From assembly GCA_964572055.1 (NCBI GenBank), contig CAZNDY010000002.1:5555-68660 (forward strand): a stretch of 63,106 nucleotides of DNA, read 5' to 3'. Of the stretch, positions 33,831 through 44,390 are shown one piece after another; the first letter of the stretch is position 1; each line of letters starts with the position of its first letter. The notes below the pieces were generated by a model, which was given only the letters and a program-made list of their open reading frames with translations, ran no database searches and had not been told where the DNA came from. The stretch is from an uncultured Gammaproteobacteria bacterium (GTDB taxonomy: Bacteria; Patescibacteriota; Patescibacteriia; Patescibacteriales; UBA12465). Position numbers and translations under genes: made by a program.

Positions 33831-34379
33831 ATGTTTAAAAATTATTTTCAAAAAAACAAAAAAGCCTTCACCTTAGTAGAACTTCTAGTAGTAATAGCTA
33901 TTATTGGCATATTGGCTACTCTAGCTGTTGTAGCCCTTCAACAAGCTCGTTCTCGTGCTCGTGATTCTAAACGTGTAGCTGACGTTAAACAAACCCAAAC
34001 TGCCCTAGAACTATTCTTTAATGAACAAGGCCGTTATCCTACTGTAGAAGAATGGAATAGTGGCACTTTAATTACATCTAGTGGAGAAATGTTAATGATT
34101 GATATTCCTTCTGCTCCTTATCCAGCTGACGGTGTTTGTGATGCTAGTCAAAATACTTTCTATTATCAAGTTGACGATGATTATTCTTCTTATTCTATCT
34201 CTTTCTGTTTAGGTAGTGATTTTCTAGTTTATCAGAGGGACCAAAATGTGCTACTCCTGGAGGAATATTGGATTACGATTGTTCGGGAGGCTCAGTGGGT
34301 GGTGAAGATAATCCCGTTTCTAATGTTTGTTATCCAGACTGTCAAGCTGGTTATATTTGTCAAAGTGGTTCTTGTGTAG
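33831..34379 (+). CDS. type IV pilin-like protein, N-terminal module; last ~52 codons are out-of-frame read-through
   Basis: KKAFTLVELLVVIAIIGILATLAVVAL class III (prepilin) signal with Glu+5, then ARSRARDSKRVADVKQ..ALELF pseudopilin head; sense lost after ...ISFCLGSDF (~34223). Confidence 0.7.
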   Translation: MFKNYFQKNKKAFTLVELLVVIAIIGILATLAVVALQQARSRARDSKRVADVKQTQTALELFFNEQGRYPTVEEWNSGTLITSSGEMLMIDIPSAPYPADGVCDASQNTFYYQVDDDYSSYSISFCLGSDFLVYQRDQNVLLLEEYWITIVREAQWVVKIIPFLMFVIQTVKLVIFVKVVLV

Positions 34380-36007
34380 TAGATACTTTTGAATGCGGTC
34401 AAGATGTCTCTTATAACGATCACACTTATCCTACAGTTGCTATCGGTGATCAATGTTGGTTTAAAGAAAACTTAATAACTGACAAGTTCAAAAATGGAGA
34501 TAGTATTCCTCGGGTAACTGGAAGTTGGGGATCAACTATATCCTCGTGGATTTCTTATCATAGCAACTCTTCTTATTATCCGGTCTATGATTTTTTTTCT
34601 ACTTATGGAAACCTTTATGGTTATGTTTATTCATCTCATACTATAACTGATCCTAGAGGAGTTTGTCCTGAGGGCTGGATGGTGCCAACTAGAGATGATT
34701 TTATTTCTTTAATAAACAATATTGGAGCTTATAATGTCTACAACTTAAGATCTTGTCGCCAGGCTAATTCTCCTTTAGGAGGTGAATGTACAACTTCAGA
34801 GCATCCTTATTGGGCTTCTGATACTGTTTATGGAACTGATGACCTTGGTTTTTCTTTACTTCCTGGTGGTCACAAATATTCAACACAGTGGCCTTATTTT
34901 GGAAGTGGTTTTTGGCTTTGGACATCGACCGCTAATAGTACTGGACCTAGTTTATACTATATATATAATACAGGTGGCCCAACAATTTCTACTTCAAGTA
35001 CTGTTCCTATTGATTCTATTTACGGTCGCTATGTTAGATGTATTAAAAAAACAGATCTTTTTCCTAAAACTGTTCCGATTGTTACCACTAGTCCTGTTAA
35101 CAATATTTCGGCAACTAGAGCTTTTTCTGGAGGAACTATAACTAATGATGGCGGTTCTATTGTTCATTCTGGTGGCGTTGTTTGGAGTGAAAACAGTAAT
35201 CCCTTGATTGACGATGGAAATTCAAAGTTTTCACATTCAACTTTAAGTTCTACCTCTTTTGTCTCTGATGTTTTCTATGGCCTTGAACCAGGTAAAACTT
35301 ATTACATTAGAGCTTATGCTGTTAATGAGGTCGGAGTAGGTTATGGTAATGTTTTATCTTTTACAACCACAGACCCTTGTTTGGGCTTAAGTTCAGTTTC
35401 TTATAATGGTTATAATTATCCAACTGTTGCTATTGGTGAACAATGTTGGTTTAAAGAGAATTTAATATCTGACAAGTTTAAAAACGGAGATTCTATCCCT
35501 AGAGTTAGTGGAAGTTGGAGTGGAACGAATTATCCTTTATATGATTTTCTTTCTACCTATGGAAATCTTTATGGTTATGTTTATTCATCTCACACCATAA
35601 CTGACCCTAGAGGAGTTTGTCCTGAGGGTTGGATGGTGCCAACTAGAGATGATTTTATTTCTTTAATGAGTAATATTGGAGCTTATAATATCTATAATCT
35701 TAGGTCATGTCGTCAGGTTAATTCTCCCTTAGGAGGAGAATGTACAACCTCAGAACATCCATATTGGGCTTCTGACACTTTTTATGGAACTGATGATCTT
35801 GGTTTTTCTTTACTTCCTGGTGGTCATAAATATTCAACTCAGTGGCCCTATTTTGGAGGTGGTTTTTGGCTTTGGACTAGGACTGTTGATGATCTTGGGA
35901 CAAGTTTGTATTATATCTATAATACAGGTGGTTCAATAATTTCTACTTCAAGTACTGTTCCTATTGATTCTATTTACGGTCGCTACATTAGATGTATTAA
36001 AGAATAA
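34220..36007 (+). CDS. continuation of the same pilin-like gene in the -1 frame: FISUMP-like domain / Ig-like domain / FISUMP-like domain
   Basis: Frame open from 34220 (ORF-track TTG 34268 is not a real start). Two copies of ...IGDQCWFKENL...YGNLYGY...CPEGWMVPTRDDF...GFSLLPGG...FWLWT... resemble the Fibrobacter succinogenes major paralogous domain. A TT..V..ISATRAFSGG..TNDGGS...GKTYYIRAYAVNEVGVGYG domain lies between them. Confidence 0.65.
   Translation, partial: FSSLSEGPKCATPGGILDYDCSGGSVGGEDNPVSNVCYPDCQAGYICQSGSCVVDTFECGQDVSYNDHTYPTVAIGDQCWFKENLITDKFKNGDSIPRVTGSWGSTISSWISYHSNSSYYPVYDFFSTYGNLYGYVYSSHTITDPRGVCPEGWMVPTRDDFISLINNIGAYNVYNLRSCRQANSPLGGECTTSEHPYWASDTVYGTDDLGFSLLPGGHKYSTQWPYFGSGFWLWTSTANSTGPSLYYIYNTGGPTISTSSTVPIDSIYGRYVRCIKKTDLFPKTVPIVTTSPVNNISATRAFSGGTITNDGGSIVHSGGVVWSENSNPLIDDGNSKFSHSTLSSTSFVSDVFYGLEPGKTYYIRAYAVNEVGVGYGNVLSFTTTDPCLGLSSVSYNGYNYPTVAIGEQCWFKENLISDKFKNGDSIPRVSGSWSGTNYPLYDFLSTYGNLYGYVYSSHTITDPRGVCPEGWMVPTRDDFISLMSNIGAYNIYNLRSCRQVNSPLGGECTTSEHPYWASDTFYGTDDLGFSLLPGGHKYSTQWPYFGGGFWLWTRTVDDLGTSLYYIYNTGGSIISTSSTVPIDSIYGRYIRCIKE
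34427..35049 (+). repeat. intragenic duplication, copy 1 (lectin-like domain)
   Basis: Roughly 90% nt identity by eye to 35417-36003, with a 36-nt insertion relative to copy 2. Confidence 0.85.
35417..36003 (+). repeat. intragenic duplication, copy 2 (lectin-like domain)
   Basis: See copy 1; most differences are at third codon positions. Confidence 0.85.
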
Positions 36008-37112: not shown

Positions 37113-37202
37113 GGCAAACTTTTTTGTCAAAGACTGCGAGGCTCGTTCATCGTATTATAAATACGACTTACTTCGCTTCTCGTCTTTTCCTCAAATTTTG
37201 CT
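37113..37202 (+). promoter_or_regulatory. ~90-nt imperfect inverted repeat (candidate structured RNA) in the rpsG-fusA spacer
   Basis: Central perfect hairpin TCGTAT-tataa-ATACGA (37150-37166). Outer arms pair in blocks: GCGAG/TTCGC, AGAC/GTCT, GCAAA/TTTGC. Confidence 0.35.
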
Positions 37203-37372: not shown

Positions 37373-39457
37373 ATGTCGCAAGATTATACTCTAGATAAAT
37401 TTAGAAACATTGGCATCATGGCCCATATTGATGCTGGAAAAACAACTTTTACCGAAAGAGTTCTTTTTTATACTGGAAAAAAACATAAGATTGGTGAAAC
37501 TCATGATGGTGCCGCTGATATGGATTGGATGGAGCAGGAAAAAGAAAGAGGTATTACTATAACTTCAGCTGCTACAACTTGTTTTTGGAAAGACAATAAA
37601 ATTAATATAATTGATACTCCGGGTCACGTTGATTTTACGGTTGAAGTAGAAAGATCTCTTCGTGTTTTAGATGGCGCTATTGCTGTCTTTGATGGATCTC
37701 AGGGTGTTGAACCTCAATCAGAAACTGTTTGGCGTCAAGCAGACAAATATAATGTTCCTAGACTTTGTTTTGTTAATAAAATGGATAAAACAGGAGCTGA
37801 TTTTTACATGAGTTTAGATTCCATTAAAAAAAGATTAAATCCTAAGGCTGTTGCTTATCAATTGCCAATTGGATCTGAAGGTACTTTTTCTGGTGTTATT
37901 GATGTGTTAGAAAAAAAAGCTTATAAGTTTGAAGGAAATTTTGGTGTGAATATAACTGAAATTGAAATTCCAACTGACATGCAAGAAAAAGTTGACAAAT
38001 ATCACAGTGAGTTAGTTGAAAGAATTGTTGAGTTTGATGATAGTTTAACTGAAAAATATTTAGGTGGTGAGCAGATATCTATTGAAGAATTAAAACCAGC
38101 CTTAAGAAAGGGTGTTATTTCAAATGGAATATATCCTGTTTTTTGTGGAACAGCTTTACAGAATGTTGGAGTTCAAAAAGCTCTTGATGCTGTTTGTGAT
38201 TATTTACCATCACCTCTTGATGTTCCAGAAATAGAAGCTACAGATGTTGATGATGAAAACAAGAAAGTGGTTGTTAAGCCAGACGAAAAAGATCCTTTTA
38301 TTGGATTAGCTTTTAAAATAGCGACTGATCCTTTTGTAGGAAAACTTTGTTTTGTAAGGGTTTATAGTGGTGTTTTGAGTTCCGGTTCATATATAATTAA
38401 TTCTTCTACTGGAAACAAAGAAAGAATTGGACGCTTGGTTCGTATGCATGCTAATCATAGAGAGGAGATCAAGGAAATAAAAGCTGGAGATATTGCAGCT
38501 GTTATTGGTTTAAAAGATACTACAACTGGTAATACTTTGTGTGATGAAAAGAATCCTTTATTGCTTGAATCTATTATTTTTCCTGAACCAGTTATTAAGA
38601 TTGCTGTTGAACCAAAAACTAAGGCTGACCAAGAAAAAATGGGCATTGCTTTAAGCAGATTAGCCGAAGAAGATCCAACTTTTAGAGTAGAAAGTGATGA
38701 AGAAAGTGGACAAGTTTTGATTTCTGGTATGGGTGAACTTCATTTAGATATTATCGTTGATCGCATGAAGAGAGAGTTCGGTGTTGAAGCTAATGTTGGT
38801 AATCCTCAAGTATCTTATCGTGAAACCATTAAGCAAAAAGCTGAGGCTGAACATAAATATGCCAAACAATCTGGTGGTCGTGGTCAATATGGTCATTGTT
38901 ATTTGAGACTGGAGCCACAAGTTAATGAAGGTGGTAAAACTTATGAATTTGTTGATGAAGTTAAGGGAGGAGCTATTCCAAGAGAATATATTCCTGCTAT
39001 TGAGAAGGGTGTTAAAGAGGCAATGGGAAGTGGTGTTTTAGCTGGCTATCCAATGGTTGATGTTAAGGTAACTGTTTATGATGGTTCTTATCATGAGGTT
39101 GACTCTTCTGAAATAGCTTTTAAAATGGCAGCTATTTTTGCTTTTAAAGATGCTTGTCAAAAAGCTAGTCCGGTTTTACTTGAGCCAGTTATGAAAGTTG
39201 AAGTTACTACTCCAGAGGAATATATGGGCAATATTATTGGGGATTTAAATGCTAAAAGAGGTCAAATTGAAGAAATGACTGACAGAGGTAATGCTAAAGT
39301 TATTTTAGCTAAAGTTCCATTGGCAGAAATGTTTGGCTATGCCACATCTTTGAGGTCAATGAGTCAAGGCAGAGCTAATTATTCAATGGAATTTTCTCAT
39401 TATAATGAAGTTCCAAGAAATATTTTAGAACAAATTAAAGAAAAAAGTGGTAAATAG
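37373..39457 (+). CDS. fusA: translation elongation factor G
   Basis: [26 protein letters not shown] GTPase motifs; 694 aa full-length EF-G. Confidence 0.96.
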
Positions 39458-39470
39458 TTTTTTATAGATA

Positions 39471-39502
39471 AAAAAACGGAGCTTAATAAAGCTCCGTTTT
39501 TT
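39471..39502 (+). terminator. intrinsic terminator after fusA
   Basis: AAAAAACGGAGC-ttaataaa-GCTCCGTTTTTT perfect stem with T run. Confidence 0.85.
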
Positions 39503-39524
39503 GTTTTTAAAATATATATTTTTT

Positions 39525-39533
39525 TGCTATAAT
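39525..39533 (+). promoter_or_regulatory. extended -10 promoter element (TGcTATAAT) for the pilin-LamG unit
   Basis: TGCTATAAT ends 6 nt before ATG 39540; weak -35. Confidence 0.4.
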
Positions 39534-39539
39534 TTTGGT

Positions 39540-40571
39540 ATGAATAATTTTTTGTTTATAAGAAATAAAAAAGCTTTTACCTTTGTTGAGATTTTAGTTG
39601 CTGTTTTAATTGTTGCCTTAATTTCTACTTTAGTGATGATTTCTCTTTCTAACTCCAGGAGTAAGGGCAGAGATTTAAAAAGAATTAATGATGTTAATCA
39701 AATTCAAGTTGCTTTAGAAAATTATAAAAATGTTGAAGGACGATACCCAGAACAATTAATTCCAGAAGAATCGTTGGTTGGTTCTTCTTCGCTTGTTTTT
39801 ATGAATTCTATTCCCAGTAATCAAGGCTATTCTTTAAATTCTTGTTTGTATGATTCTTATTATTATGAAAATTTAGAGGGAGGAGAATCTTATCAGATAA
39901 ATTTTTGTTTAGAAAATAATAATAATAATTTTGACGAAGGCTTAAAATGTGCTGGTCCGAATGGAATTTTGAATGTTCCTTGTGAGGTAAAAAATAATCT
40001 TTTGGCTTATTGGGAGTTTGATGGCAACCTAGATGATTTATCTGGTAATGGATTTAATGGTCTAGAAGTTAATGGTGCCAATTTTGTTTCTGGTTTGATT
40101 GGTCAGGCACTTGAATTTGATGGAGCGACAACTACCTATGCCTTAATGCCAAATCTCGGAATAGCTTCTGGTCCATTTTCTATTGTTTCAGTGGTTTATT
40201 TTTATTCAAATCCTCCACGTATTTATAGAACAATTTGTGGGTATGCTGGTACTAGAAGGCTTTTGGTTTCTAGCGCTGGTCGTCTTCTTACACAATTTGG
40301 TGGAAATTTTTTTTCTAATGAATATTTGCCTAATGAAGAGTGGTTTATGATTTCTTATGTTTGGGATGGAGTTAATGAAAATTGGTATATAAATGATCGT
40401 CATGACAACAGCGATGTTCCCACAGCTACTCCTAGCTGGAATAATCAATTTTATGTTGGGCAATACGATCTACAAAACTATCCACACAAGGGGTTAGTGG
40501 ATAGTCTTCGTTTTTATAATAGAGCATTAAGTTATGAAGAGATTATTAGGTTGTATGAAACAATTAGATAG
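39540..40571 (+). CDS. type IV pilin-like protein with C-terminal LamG/ConA-like lectin domain (paralogue 1)
   Basis: ORF-track start 39501 is TTG; ATG 39540 gives MNNFLFIRNKKAFTFVEILVAVLIVALISTLVMISL (prepilin signal). C-terminal half has LAYWEFDGNLDDLSGNG...GQALEFDG...LVDSLRFYNRALSYEEIIRLYE (Laminin_G_3-like). Confidence 0.75.
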   Translation: MNNFLFIRNKKAFTFVEILVAVLIVALISTLVMISLSNSRSKGRDLKRINDVNQIQVALENYKNVEGRYPEQLIPEESLVGSSSLVFMNSIPSNQGYSLNSCLYDSYYYENLEGGESYQINFCLENNNNNFDEGLKCAGPNGILNVPCEVKNNLLAYWEFDGNLDDLSGNGFNGLEVNGANFVSGLIGQALEFDGATTTYALMPNLGIASGPFSIVSVVYFYSNPPRIYRTICGYAGTRRLLVSSAGRLLTQFGGNFFSNEYLPNEEWFMISYVWDGVNENWYINDRHDNSDVPTATPSWNNQFYVGQYDLQNYPHKGLVDSLRFYNRALSYEEIIRLYETIR

Positions 40572-41652
40572 TTATATAAAAATTTTATTTAGAAAAAACA
40601 AAAAAGCTTTTACCTTTGTTGAGATTTTAGTTGCTGTTTTAATTGTTGCCTTAATTTCTACTTTAGTGATGATTTCTCTTTCTAATTCCAGGAGTAAGGG
40701 TAGGGACTTAAAAAAAATCAATGATGTTAATCAAATTCAAATTGCTTTAGAAAACTATAAAAACGTTGAAGGGGAATATCCGGAACAATTAAATTTGGGT
40801 GATCAATTAATTGGAAGCTCTTCTGATTTGGTTTTTTTAAATGAAATACCGGGTGATTTTTCATATTTATTATTTGGAGAAAATTATTATGAACTAGAAT
40901 TTGAATTAGAAAATAATTCAGATCAATTGAGTGAAGGTTTAAATCTGGCAACACCTGAAGGGATTACAAACAAAGACATTATACCTGATCTAAGCAGTAA
41001 TTATCTTAAATTTGATGGAGTCGATGATTATTTATCTTCCAGTCAAAACGTTGATTTTAATATTAATTCTGGTGATTATTCGGCTAGCGCCTGGATATAT
41101 GTCGATAATCAAGATTTAATGAATTGGCAAACAGTTGTAGGTGTTGGACAGCAATATCTTTATGGTTTTCATCTTTATGCCAATAGGGTCTGTACCTATG
41201 GAGATAGTACTGCTTTTTGTGTTAGCTTTGATTCTTATGTTCCTAGAAACCAGTGGTATTTGGCTACTATTGTGCATAATTTTTCTAGTAAAAAATTTTT
41301 TGCTTATTTAAATGGTGTTAAGGTAAATGAGGGAACTTATACTATTAATTTAGTTAATGCAATAAATAGACCAATAACTTCTGGTTATCGAGGCACATAT
41401 ACTGTTGGTATTCCTAATTATTTTAAGGGCTATATTTATGATGCTAGAATTTATAGAAGGGTTTTAAATCCTGAAGAAATAGTTTCTTTATATGAAGGGG
41501 GAAAAATATCGAGCAGTGATTTAGTTGTTCGATGGATAATGGATGACGGACTTGGATGTGCAGTCTTAGATTCTTCTATTAATAAAAACAATGCTTCTTT
41601 ATTGCCTGATTGTCCGACGTCTTGTCCTATGTGGGTAAATAGTGTTTTATAA
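40555..41652 (+). CDS. type IV pilin-like protein with C-terminal LamG/ConA-like lectin domain (paralogue 2)
   Basis: ATG 40555 or 40534; KKAFTFVEILVAVLIVALISTLVMISL, then YLKFDGVDDYL...ASAWIYV...FKGYIYDARIYRRVLNPEEIVSLYEG; overlaps the previous gene. Confidence 0.75.
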   Translation: MKQLDSYIKILFRKNKKAFTFVEILVAVLIVALISTLVMISLSNSRSKGRDLKKINDVNQIQIALENYKNVEGEYPEQLNLGDQLIGSSSDLVFLNEIPGDFSYLLFGENYYELEFELENNSDQLSEGLNLATPEGITNKDIIPDLSSNYLKFDGVDDYLSSSQNVDFNINSGDYSASAWIYVDNQDLMNWQTVVGVGQQYLYGFHLYANRVCTYGDSTAFCVSFDSYVPRNQWYLATIVHNFSSKKFFAYLNGVKVNEGTYTINLVNAINRPITSGYRGTYTVGIPNYFKGYIYDARIYRRVLNPEEIVSLYEGGKISSSDLVVRWIMDDGLGCAVLDSSINKNNASLLPDCPTSCPMWVNSVL

Positions 41653-41679
41653 TTATAATTTATAAATTTATAAATATTT

Positions 41680-42690
41680 ATGATTGCTTTTAAAAAAAAT
41701 AAAAAAAATCTGCTACTAGCCTTTACTTTTACAGAACTAATGGTTGTTATTTTAATAATTTCATTAGTAACCACCGTAGCTATTGCTTCGGTTAGTGTTA
41801 TTAAGAGATCGGCTAGAGATAAAAAGGTTTTAAGCAATATTTCAGAATTAAGACTAGCTTTAGAGTCTTACAAGATGGTGGAGGGTGATTACCCTGATAA
41901 TGAAAATTTTAATTCGGGAGAACAATTGGTTGGTCCCTCGGGCGTTGTTTTTTACGATAAAATTCCTGATAATATTTTTTATAATTATGATCAGGATTAT
42001 AGAAAATATTCAATTTCTTTTCAGTTAGAGGGTGACTTAGATAATTTAAGTTCCGGTTATAATTGTGTAGTTAATGAAAGTACAATAAATCAACCCTGTT
42101 GTCCCTTCGGTGTTTCAGCTTATTTAAAAGCAGATGGGAATGTTAATGATTATTTAGGAAATTATAATGGTGTTTTTACTGGGCCTGCTTATGTCGAGGG
42201 TAAGCTTGGGCAAGCTTTTAGTTTTAATGGTTCTAATAATTACATAAGCTTAAATTCTCCAATAGAGTTTTCTGTTGGCACAAGTCTTTCTCTTTGGATT
42301 GATTTTAATAATATTTCTACTACTAGATATTTTATAGGTGATTCTTCTCGTACCGTTGGTATTCGTTATAGTGGAACAGAATTTTTAGCTTTTCAAGGTG
42401 GGGCAGGTTATACTGGAATTAGTTGGTCAAAATTAAATGGATTTGTTCATCTGGTTATTATAAAAGTAGATAGTTACAATTTTGATTTTTATATTAACGG
42501 CGTTAAGATTGGGACTTCTTATTCTGGAGCGAATTCAAGTAATATATTAATTGATTTTATAGGAAGAAGATTGGACGGTTATTATTTTTTGGGACCAATT
42601 GACGAAGTTATGTTTTTTAATAGAGAATTGTCTTTAGATGAAATAAACTTTTTATATGAAATGGGCAATACTTGTTATTATCCAAACTAA
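41680..42690 (+). CDS. type IV pilin-like protein with C-terminal LamG/ConA-like lectin domain (paralogue 3)
   Basis: LLLAFTFTELMVVILIISLVTTVAIA prepilin signal; AYLKADGNVNDYLGN...GQAFSFNG...LGPIDEVMFFNRELSLDEINFLYE. Confidence 0.75.
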   Translation: MIAFKKNKKNLLLAFTFTELMVVILIISLVTTVAIASVSVIKRSARDKKVLSNISELRLALESYKMVEGDYPDNENFNSGEQLVGPSGVVFYDKIPDNIFYNYDQDYRKYSISFQLEGDLDNLSSGYNCVVNESTINQPCCPFGVSAYLKADGNVNDYLGNYNGVFTGPAYVEGKLGQAFSFNGSNNYISLNSPIEFSVGTSLSLWIDFNNISTTRYFIGDSSRTVGIRYSGTEFLAFQGGAGYTGISWSKLNGFVHLVIIKVDSYNFDFYINGVKIGTSYSGANSSNILIDFIGRRLDGYYFLGPIDEVMFFNRELSLDEINFLYEMGNTCYYPN

Positions 42691-42696
42691 TTTTTG

Positions 42697-42724
42697 TTGA
42701 CATAATTTATTTTTTAATTATAAT
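42697..42724 (+). promoter_or_regulatory. consensus sigma70-type promoter
   Basis: TTGACA-16 nt-TATAAT, 27 nt upstream of ATG 42752. Confidence 0.6.
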
Positions 42725-42751
42725 ACTTAGTTATAATTAAAAATTAGTTTT

Positions 42752-43021
42752 ATGTCTAAACAATTAAAGCAAGTTATAAATTTATCAAAAAAAACTGGAG
42801 ATCGTATTATTGTTTTTGATAATAGCGAGCCCGAAGACTCTTTTGTTTTAATGGGTCTTGATCAGTACGAAAGTTTAATTAATATTGATCAAAAAAAAGG
42901 CTTGACAGAGAAAAAAAATATTGATAATATCAAGGGAGATGAAAATGTTGTTAATGGAAATGGAAAAAGTTCAAGTAATTGGAAGATTCCGCCGCAAATT
43001 AGAGAAGAGGCTGAAAACTAA
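42752..43021 (+). CDS. hypothetical small protein (89 aa)
   Basis: ORF behind a consensus promoter, upstream of tuf; no motif recognised. Confidence 0.45.
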   Translation: MSKQLKQVINLSKKTGDRIIVFDNSEPEDSFVLMGLDQYESLINIDQKKGLTEKKNIDNIKGDENVVNGNGKSSSNWKIPPQIREEAEN

Positions 43022-43162
43022 ATTAAATAAAACAAATTAAAATAGTTAATTTTTTTAGCTATTTTTGCTTGTTTGTAAAAATAAATTTATTAATAATTAA
43101 TGTAAACGGCTGGTTGCCTTTGAGGCAAGTAACTCCGAAAGGAGGTCGTGTTTTCAAAAAAA

Positions 43163-44350
43163 ATGGCAGACAAATTTGAACGAAGTAAGCCTCATGTCAA
43201 CGTTGGAACGGTTGGTCACGTTGATCATGGGAAAACAACTTTGACAGCGGCTATCTTAACAGTAGCCAATGCTCAGGGTATGAAAGCAACTCAAAGAGGA
43301 GTTGACGAGATTGATAATGCCCCTGAAGAAAAACAGAGAGGTATTACAATCGCTACCTCTCATCAAGAGTATGAAACAGAGGGTAGACACTATGCTCACG
43401 TTGATTGTCCTGGTCACGCTGATTATGTTAAAAACATGATCACTGGTGCCGCTCAAATGGATGGTGCTATCTTAGTGGTTTCAGCTACTGATGGTCCTAT
43501 GCCTCAAACTAGAGAGCACATCTTGTTGGCTCGTCAGGTTGGTGTTCCTTACATCGTTGTATTTTTAAATAAATGTGACATGGTAGAGGATAAAGAGTTA
43601 ATTGATTTAGTTGAAGAAGAAATTAAAGATTTATTAAAGAAATACGAGTTCCCTGGAGACACAACTCCAATTATCAGAGGTAGTGCTTTGAAGGCTTTAG
43701 AGAATCCAACAGGTCCAGATGCGCAACCAATAGCAGATTTACTTAAAGCTTTAGATGACTATATTCCAACTCCAGAGAGAGATTTGGACAAACCATTCTT
43801 AATGCCTATTGAGGATATTTTCTCAATTGAAGGAAGAGGAACTGTGGTAACTGGAAGAATTGAAAGAGGTGTTGTTAATGTTGGTGATGAAGTTGAGATT
43901 GTTGGTTTAATGGAAACAAAAAAGACAACAATTACTGGCGTAGAGATGTTTAACAAGTCTTTGGATAGAGGTGAGGCTGGTGATAATGCTGGTTTACTTT
44001 TAAGAGGTACTAAAAAAGACGAAGTAGAAAGAGGTCAGGTTTTGACAAAACCAGGAACAGTTACACCGCATACAGAATTTGAAGCTGAAGTTTATATTTT
44101 GGGTAAAGATGAAGGTGGAAGACATAAACCATTTTTCAAGGGTTATAAACCCCAATTCTACATCAGAACAACTGATGTAACTGGTGAAATTGAATTGCCA
44201 GCAGGAGTTGAAATGGTTATGCCTGGTGATACAGTTAATTTAAAAGTTAAATTAATTGCCCCTATCGCTCTTGAAGAAAAGCAAAGATTTGCTATTCGTG
44301 AAGGTGGTAGAACAGTTGGAGCTGGTGTTGTAGCTAAAATTATCAAATAA
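43163..44350 (+). CDS. tuf: translation elongation factor Tu
   Basis: [39 protein letters not shown]; ORF-track GTG 43148 is too close to GGAGG, ATG 43163 gives the canonical N-terminus. Confidence 0.96.
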
Positions 44351-44357
44351 ATATTTA

Positions 44358-44390
44358 GGCCCGTTTTTGAAAAAAGACGGGCTTATAATG
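44358..44390 (+). terminator. hairpin after tuf (weak terminator)
   Basis: GCCCGTTTTT-gaaa-AAAGACGGGC stem; the downstream T tract is short. Confidence 0.45.

Follow-up and report, generated by a model that had tools for sequence, protein, structure and literature searches.

Between fusA and tuf in the str operon region of the DNA analysed here (63,106 nt of contig CAZNDY010000002.1, assembly GCA_964572055.1; this whole stretch is referred to as the window), three co-directional genes, pil1, pil2 and pil3, each encode a type IV pilin module fused to a LamG head. Genes of this kind, one to three per locus, occupy the site in no fewer than eight assemblies that are independent of one another and come from different samples and sources, and heads replace one another there on a conserved module. 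We consider it likely that pil1–pil3 supply minor subunits to type IV pili, the machinery for which would be encoded elsewhere, and that the heads of these subunits bind ligands or hosts. Little is yet known about host recognition in Patescibacteria, which live attached to other microbes.

Three modular pilin genes fill the interval between fusA and tuf

In the window, the fusA stop codon (39457) and the tuf start codon (43163) lie 3.7 kb apart, compared with 40–250 nt in the non-Patescibacteria loci fetched for this study. The gap is filled by pil1, pil2 and pil3, all on the forward strand and with the start of pil2 overlapping the end of pil1 by 17 nt, and by a fourth, small open reading frame (ORF) (Table 1). 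The program-made ORF list starts pil1 at a TTG (39501) and pil2 at an ATG (40534); the ATG starts proposed in the initial annotation were kept for both genes, because the leaders then have a normal length of 12–18 residues. These leaders are rich in Lys and Asn and run into a hydrophobic stretch of ~20 residues. Pairwise identities among the three proteins range from 31% to 49%, with pil1 and pil2 being ~40–49% identical overall.

All three proteins match the Laminin_G_3 family (PF13385) above the Pfam cut-off of 27.6 bits, with 39.3 bits for pil1 (E-value 9e-10), 61.6 bits for pil2 (1.2e-16) and 57.9 bits for pil3 (1.7e-15), and each ends in the LamG motif D..R.YNR.LS.EEI..LYE. At the N-terminus, pil1 and pil2 match Pfam N_methyl (PF07963; 22.1 and 23.6 bits, cut-off 21.2) and TIGR02532 (17.3 and 17.0, cut-off 16.3). 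The N-terminus of pil3 consists of AFTFTE and a hydrophobic stretch, matches that of GspG (E-value 2.5e-8) and aligns column by column with the other modules. By domain content (N_methyl plus Laminin_G_3, the N_methyl match being in pil1 and pil2), the proteins fall under the published definition of modular pilins. The initial annotation, made from the sequence without database searches, had described three co-directional paralogues in a 3.7-kb gap, each with a prepilin-type N-terminus and a LamG/ConA-like head closing on this terminal motif, and all of these elements were recovered.

Assignment to two narrower families was tried and rejected. The GspG-type major pseudopilin model (TIGR01710) gave 28–34 bits against a cut-off of 88.85 and covered residues 2–64 of its 134 positions; the Com pilins (ComGC, ComGE and ComGF) matched only over the N-terminal helix and far under their cut-offs.

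The fold of pil3 was predicted with AlphaFold2 on a 39-sequence alignment, giving a model with a pLDDT of 91.7 and a pTM of 0.83 (a version built on six sequences gave a pLDDT of 49). The model contains an unbroken 52-residue helix (residues 17–68), a small sheet (90–136), a β-sandwich (145–313) and a short C-terminal helix, a predicted lollipop pilin fold with an α1 of ~50 residues on a small β-sheet. A Foldseek search of the Protein Data Bank (PDB) with this model returned LamG/ConA-like carbohydrate-binding jelly rolls as the best matches. Domain 4 of the arabinanase AbnA was matched with E-values of 1e-10 to 1e-9 (5hon_A: E-value 1.3e-9, target-normalised TM-score 0.70), and the top matches also included trans-sialidases, through their lectin-like domain, and clostridial neurotoxins, through their Hc-N domains. 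In a profile search of the PDB, the N-terminus aligned with GspG, geopilin, PilA and PilE1, and the head with LamG-type domains (4qvs and 5hon). The pilin helix and β-sandwich head anticipated from the sequence are thus both present in the model, and the fold-level resemblance of the heads to carbohydrate-binding modules suggests that they may act as lectins or otherwise bind glycans.

The cassette occupies a variable site in one Falkowbacteria-like clade

To place the locus in context, 80 genome loci were collected with an EF-G probe and further contigs through orthologues of the pilins; loci are referred to below by L numbers. The window EF-G is 62–90% identical to those of the 80 loci, and its EF-Tu is 97% identical to that of L084. 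The fusA–tuf interval holds one pilin gene in L001, three in L084, at least two in L083, and two in each of L002, L081/L082, L085, L086–L088 (among them HGW-Falkowbacteria-1, GCA_002840305.1) and L131–L133 (among them GCA_964540285.1). Orthologues of pil2 are always found at this locus (91% identical in L084, 59% in L081 and 59% in L083), orthologues of pil3 at this locus are 56–81% identical, and the pil1 head has an 80% identical orthologue, P0160. The insertion is therefore a conserved neighbourhood of a whole clade in public genomes and not a one-off.

In a neighbour-joining tree of EF-G, all placeable carriers of the cassette group into a single Falkowbacteria-like clade, whose sisters, L003, L004 and L053 and then L022, have no pilins at the site. 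The gap of L003, L053 and L022 holds the small ORF only, and that of L004 the small ORF and an unrelated ORF of 217 aa; a 3-kb segment is inserted at the same point in L011. Taken together, this distribution and the tree indicate that the ancestral order in the lineage was fusA, small ORF, tuf, that the boundary after fusA is a variable site, and that a single acquisition, in the ancestor of the Falkowbacteria-like clade, brought in the pilin cassette. The initial annotation had the cassette splitting the fusA–tuf junction; it does lie between the two genes, but by this reconstruction the junction was already non-canonical when the pilins arrived, and they were inserted between fusA and a pre-existing small ORF.

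An origin of the 3.7-kb insert in a chimeric assembly, or in the recent transfer of a mobile island, has in its favour the sharp boundaries, the terminator and promoters of its own, and an AT skew unlike that of the flanking translation genes. We regard such an origin as highly improbable. A contig chimera, which the initial annotation had named as a possible undoing of its proposal, is excluded because the arrangement recurs in independent assemblies; the carriers are monophyletic, the G+C content of the cassette equals that of its surroundings, and no integrase, transposase or flanking repeat was found at the cassette among the window ORFs or in the repeat analysis. The skew more likely reflects protein composition, because the same shift is seen in the secreted-protein gene at 33831–36007.

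Conserved signals delimit the cassette

The hairpin 3' of fusA contains five G-C pairs in its stem and is preceded by an A-run, making it potentially bidirectional. Just downstream, the hexamer of the extended –10 site ends 6 nt ahead of the pil1 ATG, with equal spacing in L081 and L086, suggesting that the pil1 mRNA may be leaderless; no Shine-Dalgarno-like sequence was seen upstream of pil1 or pil3. A perfect σ70-type promoter stands ahead of the small ORF. Another terminator-like site lies downstream of tuf (44356–44385). The gene order of the region is rpsL, rpsG, fusA, tuf and then the S10 operon, and with the 3.7-kb gap, the terminator and two promoter-like sites, the locus departs from a canonical str operon, in which tuf directly follows fusA in one transcription unit.

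Promoter-like sites are not enriched in this AT-rich region (42 found, 50.8 expected from shuffled sequences). Because of this, a consensus match alone proves little, and the case for the cassette signals therefore rests on their conservation in relatives. A hairpin with a T-run follows fusA in every cassette-bearing relative, and is missing in seven pilin-less relatives (L003, L004, L008, L010, L012, L022 and L053), where the next gene, the small ORF or, in L004, the unrelated 217-aa ORF, starts ~3–60 nt past fusA; the exception is L011, which has a hairpin after fusA and an unrelated 3-kb insert. In L081, L085, L086 and L002, the same place has a T-rich stretch and then an extended –10-like box (TGnTATAAT or close to it); L001 and L083 show a looser form. 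Likewise, TTGACAT-N16-TATAAT recurs at the matching position in five genomes (the window, L084, L081, L085 and L086). The terminator, extended –10 and consensus promoter that had been described for the window, and the proposal that they give the unit its own boundaries, are thus borne out by the cassette-bearing relatives. In such an arrangement, the terminator would insulate the array from fusA, the array would be transcribed from its own promoter, and the second promoter would restart transcription for the small ORF and tuf.

A second perfect match to the σ70 consensus (12/12, TTGACA-18-TATAAT) was noted on the minus strand at 37130–37101, between rpsG and fusA and directed antisense into rpsG.

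Heads are replaced as whole units on a conserved module

In the window, the module is joined to three different LamG heads. Elsewhere at this locus it bears a longer LamG head (slot 1 of L084 and L131), a GLUG-repeat head (L085), InlB B-repeat and He_PIG plus FISUMP heads (L002), and heads of no assigned family (L001 and a 527-aa protein of L086). The exchange is seen when the window is compared with L084. From 40594 through the ribosomal protein genes, the two run collinear with 90% identical nucleotides, whereas the slot-1 genes match over their first 213 nt only (95%), the heads that follow not aligning at the DNA level. Each of these two head types has its own orthologue elsewhere (80–85% identical), so they are alternative alleles and not one fast-diverging sequence. 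The swappable heads envisaged in the initial annotation are therefore observed both between paralogues and between close genomes.

The 5' part of the module behaves differently from the heads. A 210-nt segment is 91% identical between pil1 and pil2, and the pil1 copy matches the first part of the L084 slot-1 gene at 95% identity. In pil2, the synonymous divergence from L084 is 0.14 for the module (40583–40792 in the window, 1150–1355 in L084), against 0.63 for the head and ~0.4 for neighbouring genes. This low module divergence fits gene conversion or concerted evolution among module copies. The ratio of nonsynonymous to synonymous divergence (dN/dS) is 0.12 for pil2 and 0.17 for pil3, compared with 0.08 for the small ORF, 0.04 for tuf and 0.01–0.09 for ribosomal protein genes, which shows that pil2 and pil3 are working genes under purifying selection, though they evolve faster than tuf and the genes for ribosomal proteins. 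With pairwise dN/dS of 0.10–0.22, the heads give no support for diversifying selection. Head variation thus appears to arise by replacement of whole heads and not by fast point substitution. After its acquisition, the array would have changed in copy number (one to three) and head type, the near-identity of the module in some copies probably reflecting gene conversion.

One could go further and view the fusA/small-ORF junction as a site dedicated to head swapping. The near-identical 210-nt module (91% between paralogues and 95% between genomes, with low synonymous divergence) would then be a recombination handle through which heads pass in and out, as in C-terminal module exchange of polymorphic toxins or in pilin gene conversion, and the translation-factor location, with partial read-through of the terminator, would couple adhesin output to growth rate in a genome with very few regulators. 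We hold this reading to be unlikely.

The pilin module and its link to type IV pili

Across the locus family, Phe+1, Thr+2 and Glu+5 are invariant in all 12 module sequences, of which 11 have Ala at position –1 and one (L085_b) has Gly; L081_a, which stands outside the alignment, also has Gly there. In the whole window, prepilin motifs at the start of real ORFs occur four times only, in pil1–pil3 and in a fourth pilin gene upstream of rpsL. The cysteines of the module vary, with a set of four, the last two only, or none (pil2 and its orthologues) among the window genes and those of L001, L002, L081, L083 and L085; some paralogues therefore seem able to do without disulfide bonds in the pilin head.

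A link to pilus machinery came from a metagenome scan with the module alignment. The query was reduced to a generic AFT[LF]xE, and among the matches listed a whole-module match was found in about 6 of 42 loci. One of these, the metagenome contig L090, encodes a headless homologue of 156 aa that spans the whole module (hhalign probability 99.5%, E-value 1.6e-22) and has Ala at –1. It lies between a T2SSF (PilC) and a peptidase A24 (PilD) gene, with a gene for a T2SSE ATPase and another four pilin genes next to it. Ordinary type IV pilus loci therefore include members of the family to which the module belongs.

Taken as pilus subunits, pil1–pil3 would be cleaved after Ala (or Gly) at –1, before Phe+1, by a prepilin peptidase encoded elsewhere, and would join type IV pili as low-abundance, probably tip-located components. 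Their heads would recognise ligands, whether glycans or others, on the surfaces of host cells or particles, and different heads would confer different specificities.

Several observations weigh against this reading. The canonical residue at prepilin position –1 is Gly, and all four pilin genes of the window have Ala there. The N_methyl scores of pil1 and pil2 are only marginally above threshold, and pil3 has no N_methyl match at E ≤ 0.1. Reading of the translations from 1 to 32 kb revealed no recognisable pilus assembly genes, in agreement with the initial annotation, the region downstream of tuf having been inspected only as far as the S10 and ribosomal protein genes that come next; a prepilin peptidase gene is likewise absent from the 63-kb window, to which that search was confined. 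As regards the heads, PF13385 is very broad, with 237,958 hits among 1.84 billion representatives (E ≤ 0.001), and many of its members are not known lectins. A profile search with the full-length alignment gave no count of pilin–LamG fusions, the best 150 of the 237,958 hits being almost all giant multi-LamG proteins. Finally, PilC of Streptococcus sanguinis, a lectin-bearing minor pilin, is absent from the PDB profile matches and from the top 50 Foldseek matches.

Some of these points would suit proteins that use the class III signal and helix for secretion and anchoring only, and that act as membrane-anchored or short-pseudopilus surface receptors in sensing or capturing ligands, resembling archaeal sugar-binding proteins with class III signals or pseudopilins of the type II secretion system (T2SS). 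No assembly genes lie nearby, heads of 190–220 residues on a small module are hard to fit into a filament body, and the best NCBIfam matches of the N-terminus are GspG-type pseudopilins, all far under cut-off. However, Glu+5 is invariant, the headless homologue of the module sits inside the pilT-pilC-pilD cluster of L090, and equally bulky modular pilins are incorporated into S. sanguinis pili (PMC8179133, PMC9934059), so that we regard receptors of this kind as unlikely.

Alternatively, the array might serve a competence pilus or another non-adhesive type IV filament, with the LamG heads priming assembly or contacting the cell wall or envelope. Patescibacteria are reported to be naturally competent and reliant on imported nucleotides (PMC10633639), and the N-termini show weak NCBIfam similarity to ComGC, ComGE and ComGF; this similarity is confined to the N-terminal helix. 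Replacement of heads between close relatives suits diversification of ligands better than a conserved role in assembly, and the fold matches are carbohydrate-binding modules. A competence-type role is, in our view, quite unlikely, and minor pilus subunits with ligand-binding heads remain the explanation that we prefer.

A fourth pilin gene, the small ORF and the tuf leader

The initial annotation had also placed a fourth pilin-like gene with lectin-like heads immediately upstream of rpsL. The gene is real and carries the same module with FISUMP heads, but instead of a single ORF it consists of two that overlap in different frames. The first of its two ORFs matches N_methyl (E-value 3e-9), and the second Fib_succ_major (E-value 6e-52, two FISUMP domains). 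Relative to an intact, syntenic orthologue of 733 aa in L131 (murC-murB-alaS-pilin-rpsL), 1 nt is deleted between 34220 and 34221, within a T-run; the gene may truly be a pseudogene, or the frameshift may be a variant within the population or an error of the assembly. In HGW-Falkowbacteria-1 (L087), two overlapping ORFs are likewise called for the FISUMP gene that precedes rpsL. Within the head region of the window gene, 34406–34874 and 35396–35828 form a tandem duplication with 82–90% DNA identity, ~950–990 nt apart.

The small ORF belongs to a family of 80–140 residues with a conserved C-terminal W-x-I-P...K..A.E motif. In 16 aligned loci, Falkowbacteria- and Saccharibacteria-labelled ones included, a homologue is located in the fusA–tuf gap. 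Homologues are found directly 5' of tuf in all genomes of the cassette clade and its sisters, as well as in distant ones labelled Falkowbacteria, Parcubacteria, Moranbacteria and Saccharibacteria; examples are L001 (13414–13707), L003 (8995–9396), L008 (3897–4319), L010 (12087–12419) and L071 (12124–12384). A protein search returned 466 clusters; among the 120 listed, those with names are mostly annotated as hypothetical proteins, and the taxon labels shown are of Patescibacteria type. The N-terminus is weakly Phd/YefM-like (24 bits, under the cut-off of 29.8). Because no toxin partner gene adjoins it, the small ORF is probably no toxin–antitoxin component.

Between the small ORF and tuf lies a conserved leader, the second hairpin of which (CTCC-gaaa-GGAG) contains a GGAGG 17 nt from the tuf ATG. 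The leader is highly conserved across the seven genomes compared, and this hairpin shows compensatory changes in L001, L002 and L081 (pairings seen are CTCC/GGAG, CCCTC/GAGGG and CTCCC/GGGAG). An Rfam scan of 33–46 kb assigned no family to the leader, the sole match being a sub-threshold sRNA on the fusA terminator. Given the conserved hairpins with compensatory changes and no Rfam match, the leader may be a translational control element for tuf. The small ORF and this structured leader may be the less explored items of the locus.

Table 1. Features of the fusA–tuf region and related elements (window coordinates, except for the L090 cluster, which is given in coordinates of its own contig)
Feature	Coordinates	Strand	Description
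pil1, modular type IV pilin	39540..40571	+	343 aa; leader MNNFLFIRNKKA, then FTFVE...; ~145-aa pilin module; LamG head
pil2, modular type IV pilin	40555..41652	+	365 aa; LamG head and ~45-aa C-terminal extension
pil3, modular type IV pilin	41680..42690	+	336 aa; leader MIAFKKNKKNLLLA, then FTFTE...
5' pilin-module repeat, copy 1	39550..39759	+	210 nt; 91% identical to 40583–40792
5' pilin-module repeat, copy 2	40583..40792	+	210 nt; in pil2
fusA (EF-G)	37373..39457	+	694-aa ORF; upstream boundary of the cassette
Intrinsic terminator-like hairpin 3' of fusA	39471..39502	+	14-bp stem, 4-nt loop, T-run
Promoter-like site, extended –10	39506..39533	+	TGCTATAAT at 39525–39533
σ70-type promoter, TTGACA-16-TATAAT	42697..42724	+	12/12 consensus; ahead of the small ORF
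Small conserved ORF	42752..43021	+	89 aa; precedes tuf in many Patescibacteria; probable ancestral occupant of the fusA–tuf gap
Conserved tuf leader	43040..43149	+	AT-rich hairpin and T-run after the small ORF, then hairpins 43114–43128 and 43133–43144
tuf (EF-Tu)	43163..44350	+	Downstream boundary; likely start ATG 43163, not GTG 43148 of the ORF list
Fourth modular pilin	33831..36007	+	Same module, two FISUMP heads; split into ORFs 33831–34379 and 34268–36007
Type IV pilus cluster of L090	1390–7462		T2SSE ATPase, T2SSF, two pilins, peptidase A24, three pilins, then ligA

Comparison with known systems

The locus keeps the four genes of the canonical str operon (rpsL-rpsG-fusA-tufA) in the same order, and differs from it in the 3.7-kb gap, in the terminator after fusA and in the promoter-bearing small ORF that precedes tuf throughout this Patescibacteria lineage. 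A text search of the literature returned nothing that joins the str operon or fusA, a pilin and the candidate phyla radiation (CPR), and the genomic placement of the pilin cassette appears not to have been described before.

The proteins themselves belong to a known class. Modular pilins were defined, and more than 1,200 of them catalogued, by Raynaud et al. (2021, PNAS; PMC8179133). The commonest architecture in that catalogue, IPR012902-PF13385 (229 proteins, Dataset S1), is that of a prepilin motif and pilin module fused to PF13385, as in pil1–pil3, and the fourth gene has the listed FISUMP architecture (IPR012902-IPR011871), which ranks fifth with 40 proteins; six of the 15 representatives in its Fig. 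8 come from CPR lineages, a Candidatus Magasanikbacteria protein standing first (PMC8179133). The catalogue is based on domains and gives no genomic context; it does not describe a location in the fusA–tuf gap, tandem copies or the replacement of heads at one locus, all of which are features of the present genomes. The idea of a modular adhesin is thus already published and is the standing hypothesis for this protein class; the conserved genomic position at which heads are swapped is a modest new observation, a synteny feature at the level of a clade, and involves no new mechanism or kind of protein.

A parallel is offered by the minor pilin PilC of S. sanguinis, whose solved structure includes a ConA-like module that binds sialylated glycans and heparin-type glycosaminoglycans, and which has been modelled at the pilus tip with other minor pilins (Shahin et al. 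2023, PNAS; PMC9934059). Modular pilins with heads as bulky as those of pil1–pil3 enter the pili of this organism (PMC8179133, PMC9934059). Unlike the window pilins, PilC has an extra Ig-like module and Gly at –1, and is encoded in a pil locus with its machinery in a monoderm Firmicute; in sequence, nothing beyond membership of the same superfamily was detected, and the likeness is one of architecture, not of orthology.

What the present locus adds to these systems is a compact natural series, in which one pilin carrier bears different heads at the same site in close relatives. Such a series could link head type to host or habitat and help in deciding which heads to assay for binding. Tests of the adhesin idea are already under way in Saccharibacteria, where PilX1 of TM7x has a jelly-roll domain resembling L-type lectins and host binding requires PilX2 and is inhibited by sugars (2024; PMC11623550); homologues of pilB, pilT, pilM and pilC are found in most Patescibacteria phyla (PMC11623550). 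Like the window pilins, PilX1 and PilX2 are Patescibacteria pilins with large C-terminal accessory domains. As far as their descriptions set them apart, PilX1 and PilX2 are encoded in dedicated pilus loci and have no predicted PilD signal, whereas the pilins of the window have an Ala/Gly-Phe-Thr-x-x-Glu site and are encoded in the str operon region.

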